From an uncultured Clostridia bacterium (GTDB taxonomy: Bacteria; Bacillota; Clostridia; Christensenellales; Borkfalkiaceae), in contig CAKQKI010000008.1 of assembly GCA_934248055.1 (NCBI GenBank), positions 1,835-65,834 of the forward strand: a stretch of DNA of 64,000 nucleotides, read 5' to 3'. How positions within the stretch are numbered: the stretch's first letter is position 1; each line of letters begins with the position of its first letter. The position numbers were made by a program, and so were the translations under genes. Below are positions 24,431 to 35,362 of this stretch, piece by piece. The notes beneath the pieces were generated by a model. It was not told where the DNA came from, searched no databases, and saw nothing but the letters and a program-made list of their open reading frames with translations.

Positions 24431-25066
24431 TTATTTTCTTAATTCTTCGTAAGAAGTTTCGAATTTTTCAACAAACGGCTTATACACTTTAAAATCTCTG
24501 AAAAAAATCTTGCTCGCATACACGCCGAGCCCTACTCTGCCGTATTTGCTTATCGGTTTTTTATCCAGCATTTCAACCACGAGTTCGCCGTCTACGAATA
24601 AAAATAAATTATTACCCGCCCGTCCGGTCTGAATATGATGTTCCGTCGAAGCGTCGAAATCTTTGATTTTCGTAAGAGCCTGCACTTTGTTTTTGAGCGG
24701 ATATTTTTCAATGCCGCACTTTCCTATCCACCAGCCTTGCAGTCCGCCTACGTACCCGGGCTTAGGAAGACCTTTTTTATAATTCCACCCGTCCGCGCAG
24801 AAAGTAAAGTTCAGATCGTTATCGTAAGGGGGAATGATTTTGCCGTAAAAATCAAGCAGAACGTCGCCTTTATAATGCTTATAGGAATAAATAAGACCGC
24901 CGCCGTCTTCTTCCATATAACCCGTAACGCCGCCGTTTTCGGCAATCCACTTACCGCCCGCAATCTCAAAATCTTTTTCAAGATTGCCGCCTGAAAAATC
25001 CGTCCGATACAGCAATTCGGATTTTTCAACCGTAATATCTTTTTCTTTTATTCTGAGTATCTGCAT
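24431..25066 (-). CDS. Hypothetical protein, possibly concanavalin-like (YesU/DUF1961-like)
   Basis: 211 aa. It resembles YesU-type jelly-roll proteins only by my recollection and is not verified. Confidence 0.35.
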   Translation of the reverse strand: MQILRIKEKDITVEKSELLYRTDFSGGNLEKDFEIAGGKWIAENGGVTGYMEEDGGGLIYSYKHYKGDVLLDFYGKIIPPYDNDLNFTFCADGWNYKKGLPKPGYVGGLQGWWIGKCGIEKYPLKNKVQALTKIKDFDASTEHHIQTGRAGNNLFLFVDGELVVEMLDKKPISKYGRVGLGVYASKIFFRDFKVYKPFVEKFETSYEELRK

Positions 25067-25087
25067 ATTTTAACAGTTTTCCTTTAT

Positions 25088-25121
25088 AAATCTTATTGCG
25101 CCGTAAATCTTATTGCGCCGT
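25088..25121. repeat. Perfect 17-bp tandem duplication (AAATCTTATTGCGCCGT x2)
   Basis: Read directly: unit 1 is 25088-25104 and unit 2 is 25105-25121. Confidence 0.95.
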
Positions 25122-26441: not shown

Positions 26442-26719
26442 TCCGAGCCGCGTTTAACTGCTGTGTTTTTTTAGTACTTCTAATCAGGAAGTTAACTACT
26501 AAAACCGATGAAAAACGAAGATAAAATCATGCGCGATAAAAATCAACGATCAGAAAATTTTTAACTTTTAATTAAATCAGCAAATAAAACGAACCTTCAA
26601 TATCGTAAAGATCGCTCGGTCTCAATGAATTTACCGATTATAAGGGTAATAACGTTTTAAGATAAAGAATGCAATTGCTTGTGTTCTGCATTTTAGATTA
26701 TACAGGGAAAAGTAATGAT

Positions 26720-29700
26720 ATGAAAAAGATGTTATGTAATTTTTGTCAGGAAACTTTAGAGTTTGAAAATCATAAATATACATGCCCGATTTGCGACAAA
26801 GAATGGAATGAAATTATCCTTAGCGATAAAAATTATTTCGATTCGGACTGCGTGTCTTATATCAATCCGATATTGACGTCAGAGTACCAAAGTTTTTATT
26901 CGTTATTGCAAAACAAACAAGTTTACGGGATTATTTTGCAAATTAAAGATATTTACGAAATCATCATCAGAATTCCCGTATTGCTGGTATGTTCTTTCAT
27001 TTTAAACGCCAAACACACGCTTAAAGGAAAGGAATTGCTTGTTTATATGATGTCTAAACCGCTGTCTTTAGGCGATTGGCGATACCTTATTTCGCTTGCT
27101 TCGGAAGTGGTAGACGAAATGGAAGAAACCGTTCCGATTGAGATCAAATCGTTGGTTAACATAGTAAAAAAATTCGTCTTTTCCGATAAAAACGGAGATA
27201 TCGTGTATTGGAGAAACAGCACCATTTCTCACGGAGCGACAAGGCAGTTAAACGATGCGGATTTATACGATGACGCCGCGACTAAATTAGAAGAAATTAC
27301 AGGTTTTTTTAAAAACAACGCTTCATTATTTCACAGTATTTCGTTCATTGACGAAAACGGCGTTGAATTGGACGAAAACAACAGCAAAATCTGCAAAAGA
27401 GGAAGGGTGTTTTTAAAAATCAACGATAAAAAATATTCTCTTTACCCTTTTTTCACCATAAAAGACGAGGGGATTTTTTTGTTCGACAGATATGTAAAAA
27501 AAATTAAAAAGACGGATATTATCGATTACGTAAAAAGCGTAAAAACCTCCGTCGAGTTTGAAGAATTAAATAATTTAAGTTTAGAAAATTCCATAAGTTT
27601 ATTTAATGCGGACAACAGTATAGACACATATACAATCGAAGAACGCGACCTTTGCGAAGAGATTGCCAACGGTAACGAATTTTTGTCACCCGATTACTTA
27701 ATCGAAGCGTTAAAAGAAGAATTAAAAAACAAAAAAAGCGTTTTTTCCATACAAATGGAAAAAGGAATGGGGAAAAGTTATTTCGTAAAAGGACTCGACG
27801 CGTTCTCATTGAATAATATTTTTATTGACGAACTTACCGTTAAAGCGTTTTATATTAATTCGACGTACAATTCCAGAGTAAACGATTTCTGTATTTGCGT
27901 CGAAGATTTAATGAGAAAAAAAACAAGCGGTTTTACGATTGCTAATTCGGTTATTCGTCTCAACATCAATTCGGCTGACCCGAGCAAGGCTTTTGCGGAT
28001 TTTTTAAACGAATACAAAAGAAAGTATTATTACGATAAAAAATTACTTTTTATTTTTGACGGAATAGACGAATTAAAAATTCAAACGGGCAAAAACATTA
28101 CCGATTTTATTCCCGATTACGATGATTTGGACGACGGAATTTATATTCTTTTGACTTTAAGAACCGATTCAAAAAACGATGAAATATCGCCGTTTGTTCG
28201 CGAATATATTTCTGATTTCAAAGGGAAAAAATATTGCTATACAAAATCAAGCGAAGAATATCTTTCGTTCGCAAAGAATTATTTTGATTTGTTTTTTGTT
28301 AAAAAAGTACTGTTGTTTTGCAAAAAAAATAAACTGAACAATAATATCAACGTGGCGAAAATGAGCGAAAAATTCTACGAAATCGAAGACAAGTCGATGT
28401 TGAATTTAAGCTTGATTCGCGAATTGACTCTTTTAAATTTAAACGACTGCATTAAAAAAGGAAACGATTATTTCAATGCCGACGAGTTGTCTTTCGGCAG
28501 CGATATGTACGTTTCTTATTTCAGCAGTATAAAAGAGTATTACGGTTCAAAATATTATGAGAAATTCGTCAACGTTTTGTGCCGTCTGGCAATTGCCGAC
28601 AGGGGGCTTTCCCTTGAAGAGTTGTCTGTTTTATCGGGAAACAACAATCTGAATTTTGCCTTTCTCGGCTTTATAAATTCCATGAAAATGTTTCTTGATA
28701 CAATCAGAGACAATAAGGGAACGTTGTTTACTATAGGCCACATAGATAGAAAGAGTATCATTTATTCGATTTTCAAACAAGAAATCGATAGTTTAAAAAA
28801 CGAGATTATTTTAAGAATAGAAAACGTTTCAAGTGACGCTTTTGCTTACGGAAACGTTGAAGACAACGTGTTTTATTGCTGTATTAACTCAATTCTCAAC
28901 GACTTAAACCCCGCAATTCCCGACGATTGCGCCGTTGCGTTCGATTTGTTTAAAAGCATGCTTAAATTGCCTTTGGATTTCGATTGGGGCGCGTTTCGTT
29001 CGACTATTATTTCCGAACTGATTGTTTTAAATAATATAACGGGGTTCGAGAAGTTTTCGTTCGACTTGAACGAAGAGCAAAAATACGATTATTTCATGAT
29101 TTTATCGAAAATCGCTTTTAATGAAATGATTTTAAAAAATACCTGTATAAGCGAGCAGTTTTTTGAAAAAGCAATTGCCTTCTATAAAGACGAAAGCGCA
29201 GACGAAAACAAGCAAAACGGTTATGCGGAAACGCTGTCTTTTTACGCTACTTTATTGTGGGATTTGGGAGAAAATGACAAGGCATATAACATTTATAAAG
29301 AAGTTGTAAAGTCCAAAAAGAATATAAATTTAACCGATAAACAATTAGTTTCTGACGTAGACCTTTTGTCGGAATACGTATGCCTGTCTAATATTGCCAA
29401 TTCGGCGCGTTTTTACGACGAGCAATTCAACAATTTAAAGTTCGTCGAACAAGGTTTGCCTTTATGTTGCGATTGCGAGAAAAAAGAGAGAACTCTCCCG
29501 TTTATGAGCGCGTGTTTTTTTAGTTATTACAGAGATATAAACGACGTAAAAAATGCGATATATTATATTAAAAACGCCATTTCGGAATATGATATATGCT
29601 GCCATAACCCCGAATCGAGAATGTATATTCCGGATTTGGTCAAGTGTATGTACAAATATATCGATTACATCAATTTAAACGATGCCGTTACGTGTGATTT

Positions 29701-29935
29701 CGACAAAGAAGAGAACTATTTTAATTCCTTAATCGATTATATTTCTCAAAATAAAGACTACGACGATCCTTTTTCATTTATGGAATACTTGTTTAGCCTT
29801 TACAGATTATACAAAACGAGAAATGATGAAAAAGCCAAGTATTATAAGGAAAAAATAATAAATTATTATTTACATTTAGATGACGCGTATAAAGAAAACG
29901 AACGTCTGGCAAAAATTATCGAAAAAGTTAATTAA
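26720..29935 (+). CDS. STAND-class P-loop NTPase (NACHT-like) with N-terminal zinc ribbon and HEPN-like motif and C-terminal TPR-like repeats
   Basis: Contents: Zn ribbon CNFC...CPIC; WRNSTISHG (Rx5H); Walker A GMGKS at 27764-27778; NACHT-style Walker B LLFIFDGIDE at 28043-28072; helical repeats in the last ~350 aa. I prefer the start at 26720 (MKKMLCNFC) over the ORF-track start at 26669. The gene is AT-rich. Confidence 0.65.
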   Translation: MKKMLCNFCQETLEFENHKYTCPICDKEWNEIILSDKNYFDSDCVSYINPILTSEYQSFYSLLQNKQVYGIILQIKDIYEIIIRIPVLLVCSFILNAKHTLKGKELLVYMMSKPLSLGDWRYLISLASEVVDEMEETVPIEIKSLVNIVKKFVFSDKNGDIVYWRNSTISHGATRQLNDADLYDDAATKLEEITGFFKNNASLFHSISFIDENGVELDENNSKICKRGRVFLKINDKKYSLYPFFTIKDEGIFLFDRYVKKIKKTDIIDYVKSVKTSVEFEELNNLSLENSISLFNADNSIDTYTIEERDLCEEIANGNEFLSPDYLIEALKEELKNKKSVFSIQMEKGMGKSYFVKGLDAFSLNNIFIDELTVKAFYINSTYNSRVNDFCICVEDLMRKKTSGFTIANSVIRLNINSADPSKAFADFLNEYKRKYYYDKKLLFIFDGIDELKIQTGKNITDFIPDYDDLDDGIYILLTLRTDSKNDEISPFVREYISDFKGKKYCYTKSSEEYLSFAKNYFDLFFVKKVLLFCKKNKLNNNINVAKMSEKFYEIEDKSMLNLSLIRELTLLNLNDCIKKGNDYFNADELSFGSDMYVSYFSSIKEYYGSKYYEKFVNVLCRLAIADRGLSLEELSVLSGNNNLNFAFLGFINSMKMFLDTIRDNKGTLFTIGHIDRKSIIYSIFKQEIDSLKNEIILRIENVSSDAFAYGNVEDNVFYCCINSILNDLNPAIPDDCAVAFDLFKSMLKLPLDFDWGAFRSTIISELIVLNNITGFEKFSFDLNEEQKYDYFMILSKIAFNEMILKNTCISEQFFEKAIAFYKDESADENKQNGYAETLSFYATLLWDLGENDKAYNIYKEVVKSKKNINLTDKQLVSDVDLLSEYVCLSNIANSARFYDEQFNNLKFVEQGLPLCCDCEKKERTLPFMSACFFSYYRDINDVKNAIYYIKNAISEYDICCHNPESRMYIPDLVKCMYKYIDYINLNDAVTCDFDKEENYFNSLIDYISQNKDYDDPFSFMEYLFSLYRLYKTRNDEKAKYYKEKIINYYLHLDDAYKENERLAKIIEKVN

Positions 29936-29949
29936 ACGGAGCGATAACT

Positions 29950-30987
29950 ATGAATAATATACAAGAATTTAAAAACGCCAAATACGGATTGATGATTCAT
30001 TTCGGCTTATATAGTTTGCTGGGAGGCGTGTATAAAGGACAACGCGGTCCTGCATACGCAGAATGGATTGAATGTAACAAGCGTATACCTAATGCCGAAA
30101 TCGACAAATTAGCGAGTGTTTTCAATCCTATTTATTTCGACGCCGACTATATTTGTCGCTTCGCAAAAGAATGCGGCATGAATTATATCGTCATCACGAC
30201 AAAACACCACGAAGGCTTTGCCTTGTTTAAATCGAATGCAGATAACTTTAATAGTTTCGACGGTACACCATGCAAAAGAGATTTAATAAAAGAATTGTCG
30301 GTTGCTTGCGAAAGATATGATTTAAAACTTGGTTTTTACTATTCTCAATGCATCGATTGGAGAGAGCCTGACGGCGGAGGATATACCGTAGACCCTAAAT
30401 ACTCCGCAGGCGCGTCATGGGATAACGATTGGGATTTTCCCGACAAAGAAAAAAAGAATTACGAGGCGTGTTTCAATAAAAAAATCTTACCTCAAGTCAA
30501 AGAAATTATGTCCGCTTACGGAAAGATATTTTTGGCCTGGTTTGATATGCCCCTTGATTCAACTTATCGACAAAGTGAAATATTATACAATACGGTAAAA
30601 GAATTGCAACCCGACTGTTTAATCAATTCCAGATTAGGAAACGGCAAATTCGATTACGTTTCTTTGGGGGATAACGAAATTCCCGATTTTATCCCTGACG
30701 CTATTTCGGCAAGCGTAGACGACAACGATATATGGGGATTTAAAAAATCTCCTTACGGACTTTACGAATCGGCATGCACTTTGAATAATTCGTGGGGATA
30801 TAGTTCTGTCGACGATGATTGGAAAACACCCGAAACCGTTTTAAATAACAGGATAAAGTTGGAAAGATTAGGCATAAATTACCTGATAAACGTAGGGCTG
30901 GATTGGTTGGGAAGAATACCCTTTAAAGCCGAAAACATATTGAGAGAGGTTCAAAAATTATATGAAGAAACGCAAACAAATAAATAA
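29950..30987 (+). CDS. GH29-family alpha-L-fucosidase-like protein (catalytic domain only)
   Basis: 345 aa. KYGLMIHFGLYS and TTKHHEGFALF match the GH29 N-terminal motifs. Confidence 0.75.
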   Translation: MNNIQEFKNAKYGLMIHFGLYSLLGGVYKGQRGPAYAEWIECNKRIPNAEIDKLASVFNPIYFDADYICRFAKECGMNYIVITTKHHEGFALFKSNADNFNSFDGTPCKRDLIKELSVACERYDLKLGFYYSQCIDWREPDGGGYTVDPKYSAGASWDNDWDFPDKEKKNYEACFNKKILPQVKEIMSAYGKIFLAWFDMPLDSTYRQSEILYNTVKELQPDCLINSRLGNGKFDYVSLGDNEIPDFIPDAISASVDDNDIWGFKKSPYGLYESACTLNNSWGYSSVDDDWKTPETVLNNRIKLERLGINYLINVGLDWLGRIPFKAENILREVQKLYEETQTNK

Positions 30988-32422
30988 AATGTTGTTTTAT
31001 TTCATTACAGACGACAACATTGAAAAACATCTTTCGACAAAAAGCGTTATAAACAGAAAAAACGAAGTCGTTTGTATTTGGAAAAACGACAAAGACGTAT
31101 CTAACGAACTTATATTTGAAGTAAAACATCTTATGGACAAAGACGAAAATATACATATCATGTCGTCTTTTGTACTCGATAAAAACTTTTACGGAGAATA
31201 CGGACTGAATTTTAATCAATCGGTTCTATTGCCGAAAAACAATTTGGAAGAAATAGGCTTTTCATTGAATAACGTAAGAATACATTGTTTCCGGTCTAAT
31301 ATTAATTTCATTGAATTAGACTACGTTGTCAATTCCGACGACCCGAAAGTTATCAATAACTTTAATTATTTTATGTCCGAAGTAAAGTCGAACGTCGTTT
31401 TAAAGTTAAGTTATAAAAAACTCAACGAAAACAATGAAGTTTACGTCGAAACAAAAGAGTTGACGGTTCTTGATTTTATATTGTCTTTAATCAAAGATTT
31501 CGGAACGCTGAACGATATGGACTTTAAAGGCGAGTTGTCATATAAATCGTTAAAACCGTTGCTGGTGTCATATTTGTTCACCGAAAACAGCACCGACGTA
31601 AATGAATTTGAAAGTAATTTAGGGCATAACTATAAAGAATCGTACAATTTAAACGAAAACCATTTGCGAAAGACTAAATATTTCAATAATTCCACGTGGT
31701 ATTATACCGTTGATTCTATTTCAAATATTACTTATTCCACCGACAATGCTTTGACAAATACCTTTTTTAGCGAAACGTTTACGGACAAGGTAAATAAACT
31801 GTATTTTCCCTTGGTCTTGTTGGCTGCGCATCAGAAATTGTATTGTTTGTACGTTTATCATAAACTTTTTGAAATAAATATCGATTTTACCACCGCGGAA
31901 GAATTAAAAAACAAATGCGACGAATTTACCGCAATAAAGGCTAATTTCGACAAAATGAGTTTGTATTACTTTTTTGACAATCCGTCTTTCATCGAACACG
32001 TAAACGTTTTCTATTCAAACGTGGTCGAGGCTTTCGGCGTAGAAACGTATAAAAAAGCGGTTTATTCAAAAACGAACACATTGATAGAGTTTTCAAATCA
32101 ATGCTCAAAATTATTGGCTAATTATAAAGAGAAAAAAGAATCTAAAAGAAAAATTATTTATGACATTTTTGCTATAATCACCGCATCTGTTTTTTCGTTT
32201 GCTTCATTGTACGATACGTTTTTAAAATTCTTAAAAAACATCAACGTTTCGTTTGGTTTTACCGACAACATTTTAATCTTTTCGGGATTTGCAGTCGTTT
32301 GCCTTATTATTCCTTTTATTTACAATCTCGCTAACAACATGAAAAAACTAAAAAAATCGAAGGCAGAGATCGCCGAAACCGAAAAAAAGATAAAAGACAT
32401 AGGTGTAAAAATAGACATGTAA
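30962..32422 (+). CDS. Hypothetical protein with two C-terminal TM helices
   Basis: 486 aa, very AT-rich, with no family I recognise. TM1 is IIYDIFAIITASVFSFASLY and TM2 is ILIFSGFAVVCLIIPFIYNL, followed by a Lys-rich coiled tail. An alternative start at 30989 would remove the 26-nt overlap with the GH29 gene. Confidence 0.55.
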   Translation: MKKRKQINKMLFYFITDDNIEKHLSTKSVINRKNEVVCIWKNDKDVSNELIFEVKHLMDKDENIHIMSSFVLDKNFYGEYGLNFNQSVLLPKNNLEEIGFSLNNVRIHCFRSNINFIELDYVVNSDDPKVINNFNYFMSEVKSNVVLKLSYKKLNENNEVYVETKELTVLDFILSLIKDFGTLNDMDFKGELSYKSLKPLLVSYLFTENSTDVNEFESNLGHNYKESYNLNENHLRKTKYFNNSTWYYTVDSISNITYSTDNALTNTFFSETFTDKVNKLYFPLVLLAAHQKLYCLYVYHKLFEINIDFTTAEELKNKCDEFTAIKANFDKMSLYYFFDNPSFIEHVNVFYSNVVEAFGVETYKKAVYSKTNTLIEFSNQCSKLLANYKEKKESKRKIIYDIFAIITASVFSFASLYDTFLKFLKNINVSFGFTDNILIFSGFAVVCLIIPFIYNLANNMKKLKKSKAEIAETEKKIKDIGVKIDM

Positions 32423-32544
32423 GCAATTAAAAAAATAGATTTTTTAATATTTTTTCAATAATTTCGTCTTTTATCAGATTGCTCCTTTTTATAAAAAGTC
32501 TAATTTGATTTCGCCGCATTCGGCAATGAAAGAGTATAAAGAAT

Positions 32545-32582
32545 AAACAAAAAACGAACCCCATCGGAACGAAAGGGTTCGT
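32545..32582 (-). terminator. Terminator downstream of tRNA-Leu
   Basis: Stem ACGAACCC (32554-32561) / GGGTTCGT (32575-32582). On the minus strand it is followed by TTTTTGTT. Confidence 0.6.
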
Positions 32583-32594
32583 TTTATTCTTGTT

Positions 32595-32680
32595 TGGTGC
32601 CGAAGGTGGGACTTGAACCCACACATGGTCGCCCATAACGGATTTTGAGTCCGTCGCGTCTGCCATTCCACCACTCCGGC
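32595..32680 (-). tRNA. tRNA-Leu (anticodon CAA), CCA encoded
   Basis: I folded the reverse complement by hand. Acceptor GCCGGAG/CTTCGGC; anticodon arm ACGGA-CTCAAAA-TCCGT; long variable arm (ATGG-GCGA-CCAT); T arm GTGGG-TTCAAGT-CCCAC; discriminator A plus CCA. Total 86 nt. Confidence 0.92.
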
Positions 32681-32800: not shown

Positions 32801-35362
32801 ATGGAAAAATTAGTTTTAATCGACGGCAACAGTCTGATAAATCGCGCGTATTACGCAACCCCGCTTTTAACCGACAAAAGCGGCCGCCCGACGAACGCGA
32901 TACTCGGCTTTACGAATATGCTTATAAAAATGCGCGCCGATCTTTCGCCCGACTATCTTCTCGTTGCGTTCGACCGCCACGAGCCTACTTTCAGGCATAA
33001 AATATTCGAATCTTACAAGGGAACGCGCAAACCCATGCCCGACGATTTGCGCCTGCAAATTCCGCTTCTTAAAGAACTTTTAAACGCTATGAATATCAGA
33101 ACTTACGAGCAGGCGGGAATAGAAGCCGACGATATTATAGGCACTATCGCAAAGCGTTACGGCGGAAAAACTATTATAATTACCGGCGATAAAGACAGTT
33201 TTCAACTCGTAGACGATAACGTTTCGGTATACTTTACCAAAAGGGGCATAAGCGACGTTGAAATATATACCGCCGAAAATTTTCAGGAAAAGACGGGTAT
33301 TTTACCTTCTCAGGTTATAGATTTAAAGGCGTGTATGGGAGATTCGTCAGACAATATTCCCGGGATAGCGGGCGTAGGCGAAAAAACCGCTTTAACGTTA
33401 ATTCAGAAATACGGCGGGCTTGACGGAGTTATATCTCACGCGGAAGAATTGAAAGGCAAACTTTCCGAAAAAGTTATAAACGGAAAAGAGTCTGCATATT
33501 TAAGCAGAACGCTCGCAACCATAAATGTTCACGCGGATATTCCCGAAAATATCGAAAAAAGCGTTTTCCCCTTTCCGTTCGGCAATGAAGTAAAAAAATT
33601 ATTCGAAAGCCTTGATTTTAAAGGGATTCTGCGAAGAACGGAATTGTTCGGGGCGGACGACGCGAATCAACTCTCTCCCGAAAAAAGCGAAATACAGGTT
33701 AAAATAATAAAAAAAGCGGAAGATTTTACGGGAATTCCGAGCGGGAACGAAATAACGCTCGCCGTTCTTAAAGATATTCACGTTTTTAACGGCGATAATA
33801 CCGAATACGTAATAAAAATTGCCGAAAACATGATGCTTGACGACGGTTTTTCTTACGAAGAAGGGCTTGAATTATTCCGCGAATTCGTTGAAAACGCCGA
33901 AAATACGGTTATTTGCTATTCGCGCAAAAAACTTGACGATATTTTTTACGACGCGGGAATAAATTTTAACTGCAAGGCGGAAGATCTCGACCTTGTAAGA
34001 TATCTTGCGGATTTTTCGGGACGGGAAGAAACGCTCGAAGAAACTCTCGAAGATTACGGCAAAAACAAAAACACGCCCGCTTTTTCGCTTTACTCGCTTT
34101 ATACCGAACTTTATAAAAAACTTAAAGAAGACGGAACCGAAAAGTTATATCGCGAAACGGAACTGCCGCTTTCACGGGTTTTAACAGCCATGGAGCGCGC
34201 GGGGTTTAAAATCGATATAAAAATGCTTGACGAGTTAAAAAAGGAATATTCCGCTAAATTAAAGGAATTATCCGATAAAATAAACGAGTATGCGGGCGAA
34301 CCCGTAAACCCGAATTCACCTAAGCAACTTGCAACGCTTCTTTACGAAAAACTCGGACTTTCCAAAGGAAAAAAGAATAAAAGCGGGAATTACACCACGA
34401 GCGCGGAAACCCTTGAAGCGCTTGCGGACAAGCACCCCGTCGTTCCGCTGATTTTAAGTTACAGAACGGCGCAGAAACTTTATTCTTCGTATATAGAAGG
34501 AATGCGACCGCTTATCGACGTAAAAACGGGACTCGTTCACACGTGTTTTAATCAGACGCTCACTCAGACCGGCAGGCTTTCGTCGAAAGAGCCTAACCTT
34601 CAGAATATTCCCGTCCGCGAAGACGAAGGCAGAGTGCTGAGAAAACTTTTTATTCCGAGAAGCGAAAACAGAACTCTTATAGACGCGGATTACTCGCAGA
34701 TAGAATTGCGGTTGCTTGCGCACATGAGCGGCTGCGAAGAACTGATCGGGGCTTACAACGAAGGAAAAGACGTGCATGCCGTTACGGCAAGTCAGGTTTT
34801 CGGAGTACCGATTACGGAAGTCACGCCGCAAATGCGCCGCAGCGCGAAAGCCGTTAATTTCGGAATTATTTACGGAATCAGCGAATACGGTCTTGCTAAA
34901 AATCTGAAAATCAGCGCGAAAGAAGCCGCAGATTATATTAAAAAATATTTCGAAACTTATCCGCACGTTAAAGAATATATGGAAAAAAACGTGGAATTTG
35001 CAAAAAAGCACGGTTACGTTACCACTCTTTTCGGAAGAAAGCGAATTATAAAAGAACTTTCTTCTTCTAATTACGCGGTAAGAACGTTCGGCGAACGGGC
35101 GGCAATGAACATGCCCCTTCAGGGAACGAGCGCGGACATTATAAAAATCGCGATGATAAACGTTTTTAACCGTCTTAAAAAAGAATGCCCCGACGCGTAT
35201 CTTATTTTACAGGTCCACGACGAACTTATAATCGACGCGCCCGACGAATGCGTAGCCGCCGCTTCTAAGATTTTAAAATACGAAATGGAAAACGCCGTTA
35301 AACTGAAAGTGCCGCTCACGGTAGAACTTTCGACCGGCAAAACCTGGTATGACGCGAAATGA
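32801..35362 (+). CDS. polA: DNA polymerase I
   Basis: 853 aa. N-terminal 5'-nuclease (LIDGNSLINRAYYA) and polymerase motifs DYSQIELR and QVHDELI. Confidence 0.97.
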   Translation: MEKLVLIDGNSLINRAYYATPLLTDKSGRPTNAILGFTNMLIKMRADLSPDYLLVAFDRHEPTFRHKIFESYKGTRKPMPDDLRLQIPLLKELLNAMNIRTYEQAGIEADDIIGTIAKRYGGKTIIITGDKDSFQLVDDNVSVYFTKRGISDVEIYTAENFQEKTGILPSQVIDLKACMGDSSDNIPGIAGVGEKTALTLIQKYGGLDGVISHAEELKGKLSEKVINGKESAYLSRTLATINVHADIPENIEKSVFPFPFGNEVKKLFESLDFKGILRRTELFGADDANQLSPEKSEIQVKIIKKAEDFTGIPSGNEITLAVLKDIHVFNGDNTEYVIKIAENMMLDDGFSYEEGLELFREFVENAENTVICYSRKKLDDIFYDAGINFNCKAEDLDLVRYLADFSGREETLEETLEDYGKNKNTPAFSLYSLYTELYKKLKEDGTEKLYRETELPLSRVLTAMERAGFKIDIKMLDELKKEYSAKLKELSDKINEYAGEPVNPNSPKQLATLLYEKLGLSKGKKNKSGNYTTSAETLEALADKHPVVPLILSYRTAQKLYSSYIEGMRPLIDVKTGLVHTCFNQTLTQTGRLSSKEPNLQNIPVREDEGRVLRKLFIPRSENRTLIDADYSQIELRLLAHMSGCEELIGAYNEGKDVHAVTASQVFGVPITEVTPQMRRSAKAVNFGIIYGISEYGLAKNLKISAKEAADYIKKYFETYPHVKEYMEKNVEFAKKHGYVTTLFGRKRIIKELSSSNYAVRTFGERAAMNMPLQGTSADIIKIAMINVFNRLKKECPDAYLILQVHDELIIDAPDECVAAASKILKYEMENAVKLKVPLTVELSTGKTWYDAK

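Follow-up and report, generated by a model that had tools for sequence, protein, structure and literature searches.

A candidate STAND-based conflict module of gut and rumen Clostridia that pairs a NACHT-TPR protein with a CorA-like membrane protein

Introduction

Receptors of the STAND/NLR type are a common theme in bacterial, plant and animal immunity. The bacterial STAND proteins include at least 90 defence-associated families, most of which are uncharacterised (PMC13581612). In this study, a STAND gene and its neighbours were analysed in a stretch of 64,000 nucleotides (nt) from an uncultured Clostridia bacterium (GenBank assembly GCA_934248055.1, contig CAKQKI010000008.1, positions 1,835 to 65,834 of the forward strand), which is called the window below. 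The STAND gene encodes a zinc ribbon, a HEPN-like domain, a NACHT-type nucleotide-binding core and a TPR-like tail, and it stands first in a low-GC three-gene cassette, followed by the gene of an AlfC-type fucosidase and by that of a CorA-like membrane protein, called the partner. By analogy with described systems, we hold it moderately probable that the cassette is a mobile STAND-based conflict module of gut and rumen Clostridia, most likely an abortive-infection anti-phage system, in which the STAND protein would be the sensor or switch subunit.

The closest described proteins combine the same kinds of parts. The bacterial NACHT (bNACHT) proteins carry various N-terminal fusions, and those listed include RNase effectors such as HEPN, as well as zinc ribbons (Kibby et al., bioRxiv 10.1101/2022.07.19.500537). 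In Avs1-21, the TPR-like sensors bind conserved phage proteins and oligomerisation activates the N-terminal effector (PMC13581612). Fusions of HEPN, STAND and TPR have been catalogued, and associations of HEPN domains with zinc ribbons and with two transmembrane (TM) helices have been noted (Anantharaman et al., 2013, PMC3710099). A CorA-family protein activated by SAM-AMP serves as the membrane effector in some type III CRISPR systems, and a membrane-effector role of the partner therefore has a precedent (PMC12255297).

The STAND gene and its family

26720-29935, plus strand: STAND gene, 1071 amino acids (aa) and stop codon (open reading frame, motifs, homologues, model and Foldseek)

The open reading frame (ORF) spans 26669-29935 on the plus strand and gives 1088 aa when counted from its first ATG, while the ATG at 26720 gives a protein of 1071 aa. 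The second ATG is likely the true start, because the aligned Met is where most of 22 aligned relatives begin, with shifts of a few residues in some, and because this ATG is preceded by a purine-rich stretch (agggaaaag). The protein has 32 homologues, all from metagenomes or metagenome-assembled genomes of Clostridia, and 23 of them are full-length (about 1075-1088 aa, 25-99% identity). Members are frequent among Clostridia of the human gut and the rumen, with one member cluster alone on more than 115 contigs. Two sets were used for conservation: the closer set is the alignment of the 23 full-length homologues and the wider set consists of 39 relatives at ~20% identity.

An earlier sequence-only reading had described a 1071-aa ORF with an N-terminal CxxC...CxxC ribbon, a Walker A motif GMGKS, a NACHT-type Walker B motif LLFIFDGIDE and a repeat stretch YAETLSFYATLLWDLGENDKAYNIYKEVV. 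The gene is real and everything quoted was located, as C6-x2-C9 ... C22-x2-C25 and at residues 349-353, 442-451 and 835-863, respectively, with the motif residues invariant among homologues. Taken as a single query, the sequence gave nothing significant in Pfam, NCBIfam, PADLOC or the PDB sequences. Profile searches against PDB returned only weak matches to TPR proteins, zinc ribbons or designed coiled coils, and the designed coiled coil 9r1o was dismissed as a compositional artefact.

The N-terminal region

26720-26809, plus strand: zinc ribbon, residues 1-30, with C6, C9, C22 and C25 (conservation, weak Pfam matches, model)
26810-27337, plus strand: HEPN-like all-helical domain, residues 31-206 (model helices, sub-threshold Pfam matches)
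26957-26971, plus strand: E80-x3-R84, an Ex3[KR] motif in the long second helix (conservation)
27212-27232, plus strand: R165-N166-S-T-I-S-H171, the Rx4-6H motif of HEPN (conservation, placement in the model)
27338-27589, plus strand: beta-rich subdomain, residues 207-290 (seven strands in the model, no family match)

The HEPN domains have as hallmarks an Rx4-6H motif, in which the arginine is followed by a polar residue (N, D or H), and an upstream Ex3[KR] motif (Anantharaman et al., 2013, PMC3710099). Both motifs are found in the window protein, as R165-N-x4-H171 with the polar N166 and as E80-I-I-I-R84. In the wider set, the residues D77, E80, G118, W164-R165-N166, H171-G172 and D256 are invariant. 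R165 and N166 are also invariant in an alignment of the N-terminal domain (set A6). In all three alignments checked, namely the 23 homologues, the 39 relatives and set A6, E80 shows no variation and K/R84 has a conservation of at least 90%.

The predicted structure places these residues as well. Its HEPN-like domain consists of the helices 50-64, 68-96, 101-112, 117-133, 140-153, 161-168 and 180-199, in which E80 lies within helix 68-96, the WRN triplet ends the short helix 161-168, and H171 sits in the loop 169-179 ahead of the last helix 180-199. The model has the HEPN topology and the placement of the motifs agrees with that described by Anantharaman et al. (2013), with three extra helices (101-153) standing between the candidates for helix 2 and helix 3. 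Apart from zinc ribbons, HEPN_AbiU2 and HEPN_MAE_28990 were the sole Pfam families that recurred over the region. Profile searches of the PDB sequences gave no HEPN match, and the Foldseek lists of the full-length model were dominated by STAND and TPR proteins. When the model was compared with viral structures by Foldseek, TPR and AAA matches were obtained, none of them for the N-terminal domain. Judged by motif and topology, the identification of the domain as HEPN is well supported, if not proven, and the predicted fold with its conserved residues would probably form an RNA-cutting head on the STAND protein. The sequence-only reading had left some 300 residues here as an unknown domain; no recognised family indeed matches above threshold, whereas the HEPN hallmarks had been missed.

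The zinc ribbon in front of this domain is a beta-hairpin in the model and gave weak zinc-ribbon Pfam matches in many members. In the beta-rich subdomain that follows, P243, G251, D256 and Y270 are invariant in the 23 homologues. With E <= 1e-3 as the limit, a profile of the N-terminal ~330 residues matched 611 representative clusters, and with E <= 1e-10 it matched 474; nearly all matches are the N-termini of 1000-1700-aa proteins with the same NACHT-TPR body. Therefore, the region is a widespread module dedicated to STAND proteins, and no Pfam family covers it. One relative, the 278-aa fragment P0145, has a SAM domain (Pfam SAM_1, E 1e-6) in place of the zinc ribbon before the HEPN-like domain.

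The NACHT core and the TPR-like tail

27725-28249, plus strand: nucleotide-binding domain (NBD), residues 336-510 (model strands, Foldseek matches to STAND proteins)
27764-27778, plus strand: Walker A motif GMGKS, residues 349-353 (motif, conservation)
28043-28072, plus strand: Walker B motif with NACHT signature, LLFIFDGIDE, residues 442-451 (motif, conservation)
28160-28162, plus strand: sensor-1 arginine R481 in TLRT (invariant in both sets)
28250-28819, plus strand: helical and winged-helix domains, residues 511-700, including H674 (model, conservation)
28820-29932, plus strand: TPR-like helical-repeat sensor, residues 701-1071 (model, Foldseek, Pfam in relatives)

An AlphaFold2 model of the STAND protein was built from the 23-sequence alignment, with a mean predicted local distance difference test (pLDDT) score of 83. 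Its top Foldseek match in PDB was the STAND-TPR protein 6mfv (E 3.9e-9), and further matches were Apaf-1 (1z6t, E 5.6e-6), Dark, CED-4, the Avs5 filament 9nc9 and ZAR1; ORC/Cdc6, the sister group of STAND, was also among them. Foldseek thus groups the model with STAND proteins and not with another ATPase class, as had been expected from the P-loop in the sequence-only reading, and therefore the objection that the P-loop region might model as a non-STAND ATPase falls away. The anatomy proposed there (ribbon, NACHT-signature STAND NTPase, winged helix and TPR-like sensor) was correct.

The NBD has the parallel strands 340-346, 372-378, 441-447, 474-481 and 503-507, so that Walker A and B lie on a parallel-sheet NTPase core with a fitting strand order. 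A signature D[GAS]hDE that directly follows the strand of Walker B marks the NACHT clade (Kibby et al., bioRxiv 10.1101/2022.07.19.500537). The window protein has D447-G-I-D450-E451 at this place. The signature D[GAS]hDE was reportedly also described by Koonin and Aravind (2000). Among the 23 homologues, the four Cys, G349/G351/K352/S353, D447/G448/D450/E451 and R481 are invariant; in the wider set, G351, K352, D447, D450, E451 and R481 remain invariant and G448 is at least 90% conserved. Against Pfam NACHT (PF05729) and NPHP3_N (PF24883), the window protein itself reached 12.9 bits, with a cut-off of 26.7, over 20 residues only. When the relatives were scanned singly at E <= 0.01, NPHP3_N was found in 19 of 23 and 30 of 39, and NACHT in 16 of 23 and 20 of 39.

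The winged-helix region is modelled as helices 632-639 and 646-653 with a hairpin at 659-672, and its H674 is invariant in the 23 closer homologues only. The tail consists of 17 paired helices with a pLDDT around 90. Foldseek matched the C-terminal third to the TPR proteins Rap, LGN and KLC (kinesin light chain) at a target-normalised TM-score of about 0.5. In the window protein, the Pfam evidence for TPR is weak (TPR_12, E 0.068); in the relatives, Pfam TPR families match 12 of 23 and 28 of 39, down to E 1e-57. The TPR region is the most divergent part of the protein, with a mean pairwise identity of 0.30 vs 0.54 for the NBD, and from the alignments this would be the pattern expected of a receptor surface.

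The membrane partner

30989-32422, plus strand: conserved partner of 477 aa (486 aa from a start at 30962) with CorA-like architecture (adjacency, model, Foldseek)
32153-32212, plus strand: partner TM helix 1 (TM1), residues 389-408 (hydropathy scan, model)
32270-32329, plus strand: partner TM helix 2, residues 428-447 (hydropathy scan, model)

With the single exception of L013, all complete loci of the family have the partner gene as the immediate neighbour of the STAND gene. Three arrangements were found. The order STAND-GH29-partner, in which GH29 is the fucosidase gene, occurs in the window, L001-006, L011 and L014; partner-STAND in L009, L010 and L015-L018; and STAND-partner in L007, L008 and L019-L021. 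A search begun from the partner gave three more loci, all with cassette genes. The identity to the window copy falls in parallel for partner and STAND protein (88/91%, 61/70%, 34/46% and 24/32%, respectively), and the partner is the fastest-evolving gene of the cassette (34-88% identity). The word-indexed homologue search for the partner gave 8 proteins even with a profile, and diversity was added from locus translations and a cluster look-up.

In L013, the STAND and GH29 genes are present and no partner was detectable. Downstream of them (L013 10264-12190), only fragmented ORFs are seen. The third gene of this locus appears to have decayed or been replaced, as the comparison suggests. Distant STAND proteins that share the N-terminal domain (L024 1521-5969, L026 950-5693 and L022 2870-5434, e.g. 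in Veillonella dispar) have no CorA-like partner either; instead, one or two soluble genes (about 730-860 aa) that Pfam does not recognise stand ahead of them. The two of L024 are paralogous (40% identity) and the one of L022 is related to both. These soluble genes may be a different partner set.

The pairing bears on whether the STAND protein acts alone, as a single-gene sensor-nuclease like Avs or bNACHT, with the partner and the fucosidase as mere neighbours. We regard this as very doubtful. Most characterised Avs and bNACHT systems are known to be single-gene (see also PMC13581612), and both L013 and the wider N-terminal-domain family lack the partner. On the other hand, the partner stays next to the STAND gene in three gene orders, within unrelated flanks and over a range of 29-91% STAND identity, the start and stop codons abut or overlap, and the cassette borders take in all three genes.

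No match to the partner was obtained in Pfam, NCBIfam, PADLOC, PHROG or the PDB sequences. Its model, made from a 19-sequence alignment (pLDDT 87, predicted TM-score 0.80), has an alpha/beta domain at residues 1-250 and very long helices at 254-417, the last of which enters TM1, followed by the second TM helix. The motifs NYFxSE, NxKxSY, FxNSxW and PSxxHxN are invariant in the cytoplasmic domain. Most of the top 40 Foldseek matches were CorA, a magnesium channel, or the related CmaX, aligned over about 370 columns; the best match had E 0.021 and probability 0.82, TM-scores were 0.2-0.3, and none was significant. The hallmark of CorA is a GMN motif at the end of TM1. No GMN motif was found in or after TM1 of the partner (...SFASLYDTFLKFLKNINVSF...), and Pfam CorA had no match at E <= 1 in the window copy or in 16 partner members. 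Because the matches are insignificant and GMN is absent, the partner is called CorA-like in architecture and not a member of the CorA family.

With such a partner, it might be the membrane protein that is the sole effector, the N-terminal domain being a non-catalytic adaptor that binds to its cytoplasmic domain and opens it, in a split analogue of the channel-forming NLR resistosomes. This reading is quite unlikely in our view. It would account for the near-universal pairing whatever the gene order, for the partner's own invariant cytoplasmic motifs and for the otherwise unexplained beta subdomain 207-290 with its invariant residues, and it draws on the sub-threshold hidden Markov model evidence for HEPN. 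The strict invariance of R165, N166, H171 and E80 over ~20% identity is hard to explain without catalysis, however, and the wider family keeps the N-terminal domain without a CorA-like partner. A domain common to the STAND N-terminus and the partner, which would also have suited this reading, was considered and rejected (hhalign probability 0.3%).

The cassette and its surroundings

26708-32456, plus strand: low-GC three-gene cassette of 5.75 kb with STAND, GH29 and membrane-partner genes (blastn borders, GC)
32595-32680, minus strand: tRNA-Leu(CAA), context and not part of the system (ARAGORN)

The three genes follow each other closely: the STAND gene is separated by a 15 nt gap from GH29 (29950-30987), and the partner abuts or overlaps the GH29 stop codon. 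By blastn, the homology to L011 (89% at the nucleotide level) covers exactly 26708-32456 and that to L001 (70%) covers 26718-32238, with unrelated flanks in both cases. The GC content of the cassette is 0.338 vs 0.425 and 0.441 in the flanks. Other genomes have quite different genes on the two sides of the cassette, and the flanks differ in L011, L001 and L004. Since the DNA homology is cassette-wide, the flanks are unrelated and the contexts differ, the three genes move as one unit. The gene given in the sequence-only reading was confirmed, while the three-gene cassette, with its near-universal membrane partner and its AlfC fucosidase, had been missed.

A mobile low-GC cassette whose STAND protein and partner are a fast-evolving pair could also be a selfish addiction module, in which one of the two, either HEPN-STAND or the membrane protein, would be a toxin restrained by the other, and the cassette would thereby be stabilised rather than the host defended. 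HEPN domains are often toxins (PMC3710099). The known addiction modules are nevertheless far simpler than a 1071-aa NTPase with its variable, receptor-like TPR region, and an association with plasmids or phages was not seen, so that we consider this origin highly improbable and keep to the conflict module as the preferred reading.

The surroundings of the cassette are a variable hotspot themselves, because loci with otherwise identical contexts differ by insertions. Compared with L004, L006 (1949-4616) has an inserted integrase and two genes of type I restriction-modification specificity (S) subunits in a shufflon-like manner, and compared with L001, L003 (3261-4772) has an inserted Schlafen/AlbA_2-HATPase_c_4 gene. 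In the window, no integrase or att-like repeat was found, no significant direct or inverted repeats flank the cassette, and the promoter and terminator scans stayed at chance level. The tRNA-Leu(CAA) gene lies 140 nt past the right border, with a 25-nt hairpin (32542-32594) beside its 3' end, and no second copy of this 3' end is present elsewhere in the window. On the other side, a perfect 17-nt tandem duplication (TAAATCTTATTGCGCCG twice) at 25087-25120 lies just upstream of the minus-strand gene 24431-25066.

The fucosidase

29950-30987, plus strand: AlfC-type GH29 alpha-L-fucosidase, 345 aa, cytoplasmic (Pfam, PDB 6o18)

The middle gene matches Pfam Alpha_L_fucos at E 3e-56 (191.7 bits vs a cut-off of 25.2) and AlfC in PDB (6o18) at E 3.8e-134 over residues 2-340. 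AlfC of Lacticaseibacillus casei is an alpha-1,6-specific fucosidase, and mutation of its D200, E39, R229, D242, N243, E274 or W283 abolishes activity (PMC7718225). The residues aligned to the nucleophile D200 and to the other six are identical in the window copy, and the WFD and GLYE motifs are retained in all seven of seven cassette copies. By these residues, the window fucosidase is predicted to be catalytically intact. No N-terminal signal sequence is evident in its first 25 residues, which were inspected without a signal-peptide predictor.

The fucosidase is the slowest-evolving gene of the cassette (62-94% identity). It is found only in the sub-lineage in which the STAND protein is at least 44% identical to that of the window, and it is missing from L018 (45%) and all deeper branches. 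Because sister lineages do without it, the enzyme is more probably carried along by co-transcription than needed for the mechanism.

The presence of a genuine catabolic enzyme, the best-conserved gene of the cassette, is a reason to weigh a non-immune signalling role. In this case, a MalT-like STAND protein would sense a metabolite or an envelope or ion cue through its TPR region and would control the CorA-like channel, with or without glycan use by AlfC, as a matter of physiology in the gut niche. The neighbours are mostly housekeeping or metabolic genes, no defence model matches, no member is on a viral contig, and non-defence STAND clades are interspersed among the defence clades (PMC13581612), all of which fits such a role. 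We still think it unlikely, since the protein has no DNA-binding or other regulatory output domain and has in the invariant R-N-x4-H and Ex3R a nuclease-type active site. Furthermore, the sensor is hypervariable, the cassette is patchy, low in GC and hops between contexts, AlfC is missing from sister lineages that retain the STAND-partner pair, and the partner lacks the GMN ion-selectivity motif.

The case for a defence role

For an anti-phage conflict module, the reading preferred here, we count the HEPN-NACHT-TPR architecture, the variable sensor, the mobile, low-GC and patchy cassette, and some of the contexts named below. Because a NACHT switch, a probable RNase head, a variable tail and a near-constant membrane partner come together, the cassette is a plausible variant of an anti-phage system. 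If the protein works like bNACHT, Avs and NLR proteins, its TPR region would bind a trigger, probably a phage protein, and the NACHT module would bind or exchange nucleotide, leading to oligomerisation. The oligomer may then unite the N-terminal HEPN domains into composite R-N-x4-H RNase sites, at which RNA would be cut. The CorA-like partner, of a presumed pentamer type, could be a co-effector gated by the activated STAND protein, with ion leak or depolarisation as the outcome; alternatively, it could serve as a membrane anchor, a restraint or a regulator of the STAND protein.

A more specific form of this mechanism is a two-component 'split resistosome', which we put forward as a tentative and rather unlikely possibility. 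Here, once a trigger is bound, the oligomerised NACHT-TPR sensor would dock through its N-terminal region on a pentameric CorA-like channel, at its cytoplasmic funnel, and would open it, possibly together with RNA cleavage by HEPN. The fucosidase might be a third component and might act on a fucosylated trigger or an envelope glycan.

The contexts of the cassette were sampled through 114 neighbour proteins from 14 contexts (13 loci and the window), a sample too small for a statistic. One kind of context holds an integrase with type I S-subunit genes, and Pfam identified a YefM/YoeB toxin-antitoxin pair, a Schlafen/AlbA_2 gene and a DUF234/Mrr-like gene in others. In L028 (1376-12529), a SAM_TNK-domain relative is flanked by genes for an AAA ATPase and an APH-type kinase, and another NACHT protein, longer than 1996 aa, is next in line, which gives a cluster of STAND genes. 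Downstream of the cassette in the window, DNA polymerase I (32801-35362, plus strand) matched the PADLOC model 'RTasPolA' (DRT) at E 1e-36 and was rejected as a defence gene, because its 5'-3' exonuclease and PolA domain set is complete and makes it a housekeeping Pol I.

Several results weigh against the defence reading or parts of it. None of the PADLOC, NCBIfam and PHROG models matches the STAND protein or the partner; the PADLOC library used is that of 2023, without Avs6-21 models, and among the 39 distant relatives it gave a single match (Avs1b, E 0.0034). Among the 114 neighbours, 142 PADLOC models were matched at E <= 1e-5; each of the 25 models listed, which include type I S-subunit models, PDC-S01 and mad5, matches two members. 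A clear enrichment of defence genes among the neighbours was thus not seen in this sample, which bears in part on the refuting condition of the sequence-only reading that homologues lack such an enrichment. Most cassette contexts consist of housekeeping-like genes, and no relative of the STAND family was found on the IMG/VR viral contigs. The Pfam HEPN matches all fell below the gathering score (HEPN_AbiU2 at E 7e-4 to 0.03 in one to three members per scan, HEPN_MAE_28990 at E 0.009 in one member). The insignificant CorA matches, the absence of GMN and the partnerless L013 belong here as well, and a metabolic enzyme conserved within the operon is atypical for defence systems. The sequence-only reading had named the protein a candidate antiphage sensor. 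Its immune-type architecture was borne out; the sensor role is still one that we infer, with no known defence model matching, few defence matches among the neighbours and none on viral contigs.

Comparison with known systems

The bNACHT proteins are alike in their N-terminal effector, in the NACHT module with D[GAS]hDE and winged helix, and in the TPR-type repeats (Kibby et al., bioRxiv 10.1101/2022.07.19.500537). Unlike them, the window protein stays below the Pfam NACHT/NPHP3_N thresholds, has no PADLOC match and is paired with a dedicated membrane protein. With the Avs/AVAST proteins it shares a STAND NTPase with a large TPR-like sensor, and the Avs5 filament 9nc9 is among its structural matches, whereas it has no Avs model match, a different effector and an extra operon partner. 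The catalogued HEPN-STAND-TPR fusions likewise combine the three parts in one protein (PMC3710099). Those fusions belong to DUF4145-like and other HEPN families, while the window domain lies below all Pfam HEPN thresholds and has a long insert and an extra beta subdomain.

The partner resembles the CorA Mg2+ channel (PDB 4i0u, 3jcf and 8tmc) in its predicted layout, with an alpha/beta domain in the cytoplasm, very long helices as a stalk and a pair of TM helices at the C-terminus; it differs from the CorA family in matches of E >= 0.02 and in having neither GMN nor a Pfam CorA match. In contrast to the CorA of type III CRISPR systems, it has no Cas10 or nucleotide-signal generator nearby, and its coupling would be to the STAND protein. 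The fucosidase (345 aa) matches AlfC (PDB 6o18; PMC7718225) over nearly its full length with identical catalytic residues. Unlike AlfC, it is part of a mobile cassette, with a STAND gene on one side and a membrane-protein gene on the other, and not of a fucosyl-GlcNAc catabolic operon (PMC6960285).

Fusions of HEPN, STAND and TPR, like bNACHT proteins that carry RNase effectors, are already known kinds (PMC3710099; Kibby et al., bioRxiv 10.1101/2022.07.19.500537). What is new is a large yet unannotated N-terminal-domain family, a CorA-like membrane protein that accompanies the STAND gene near-universally in one branch, and the embedded AlfC. Neither the STAND protein nor the partner is covered by a PADLOC, Pfam or PHROG model; the partner is previously undescribed, and no report of the pairing was found among papers that combine CorA with NACHT, STAND or HEPN. 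If the pairing is functional, NLR-like sensing would be linked to a channel-type effector, a link so far made in plant resistosomes and, for CorA, in type III CRISPR signalling; the family would also offer a testable case of a glycosidase inside an immune-type operon of gut commensals.

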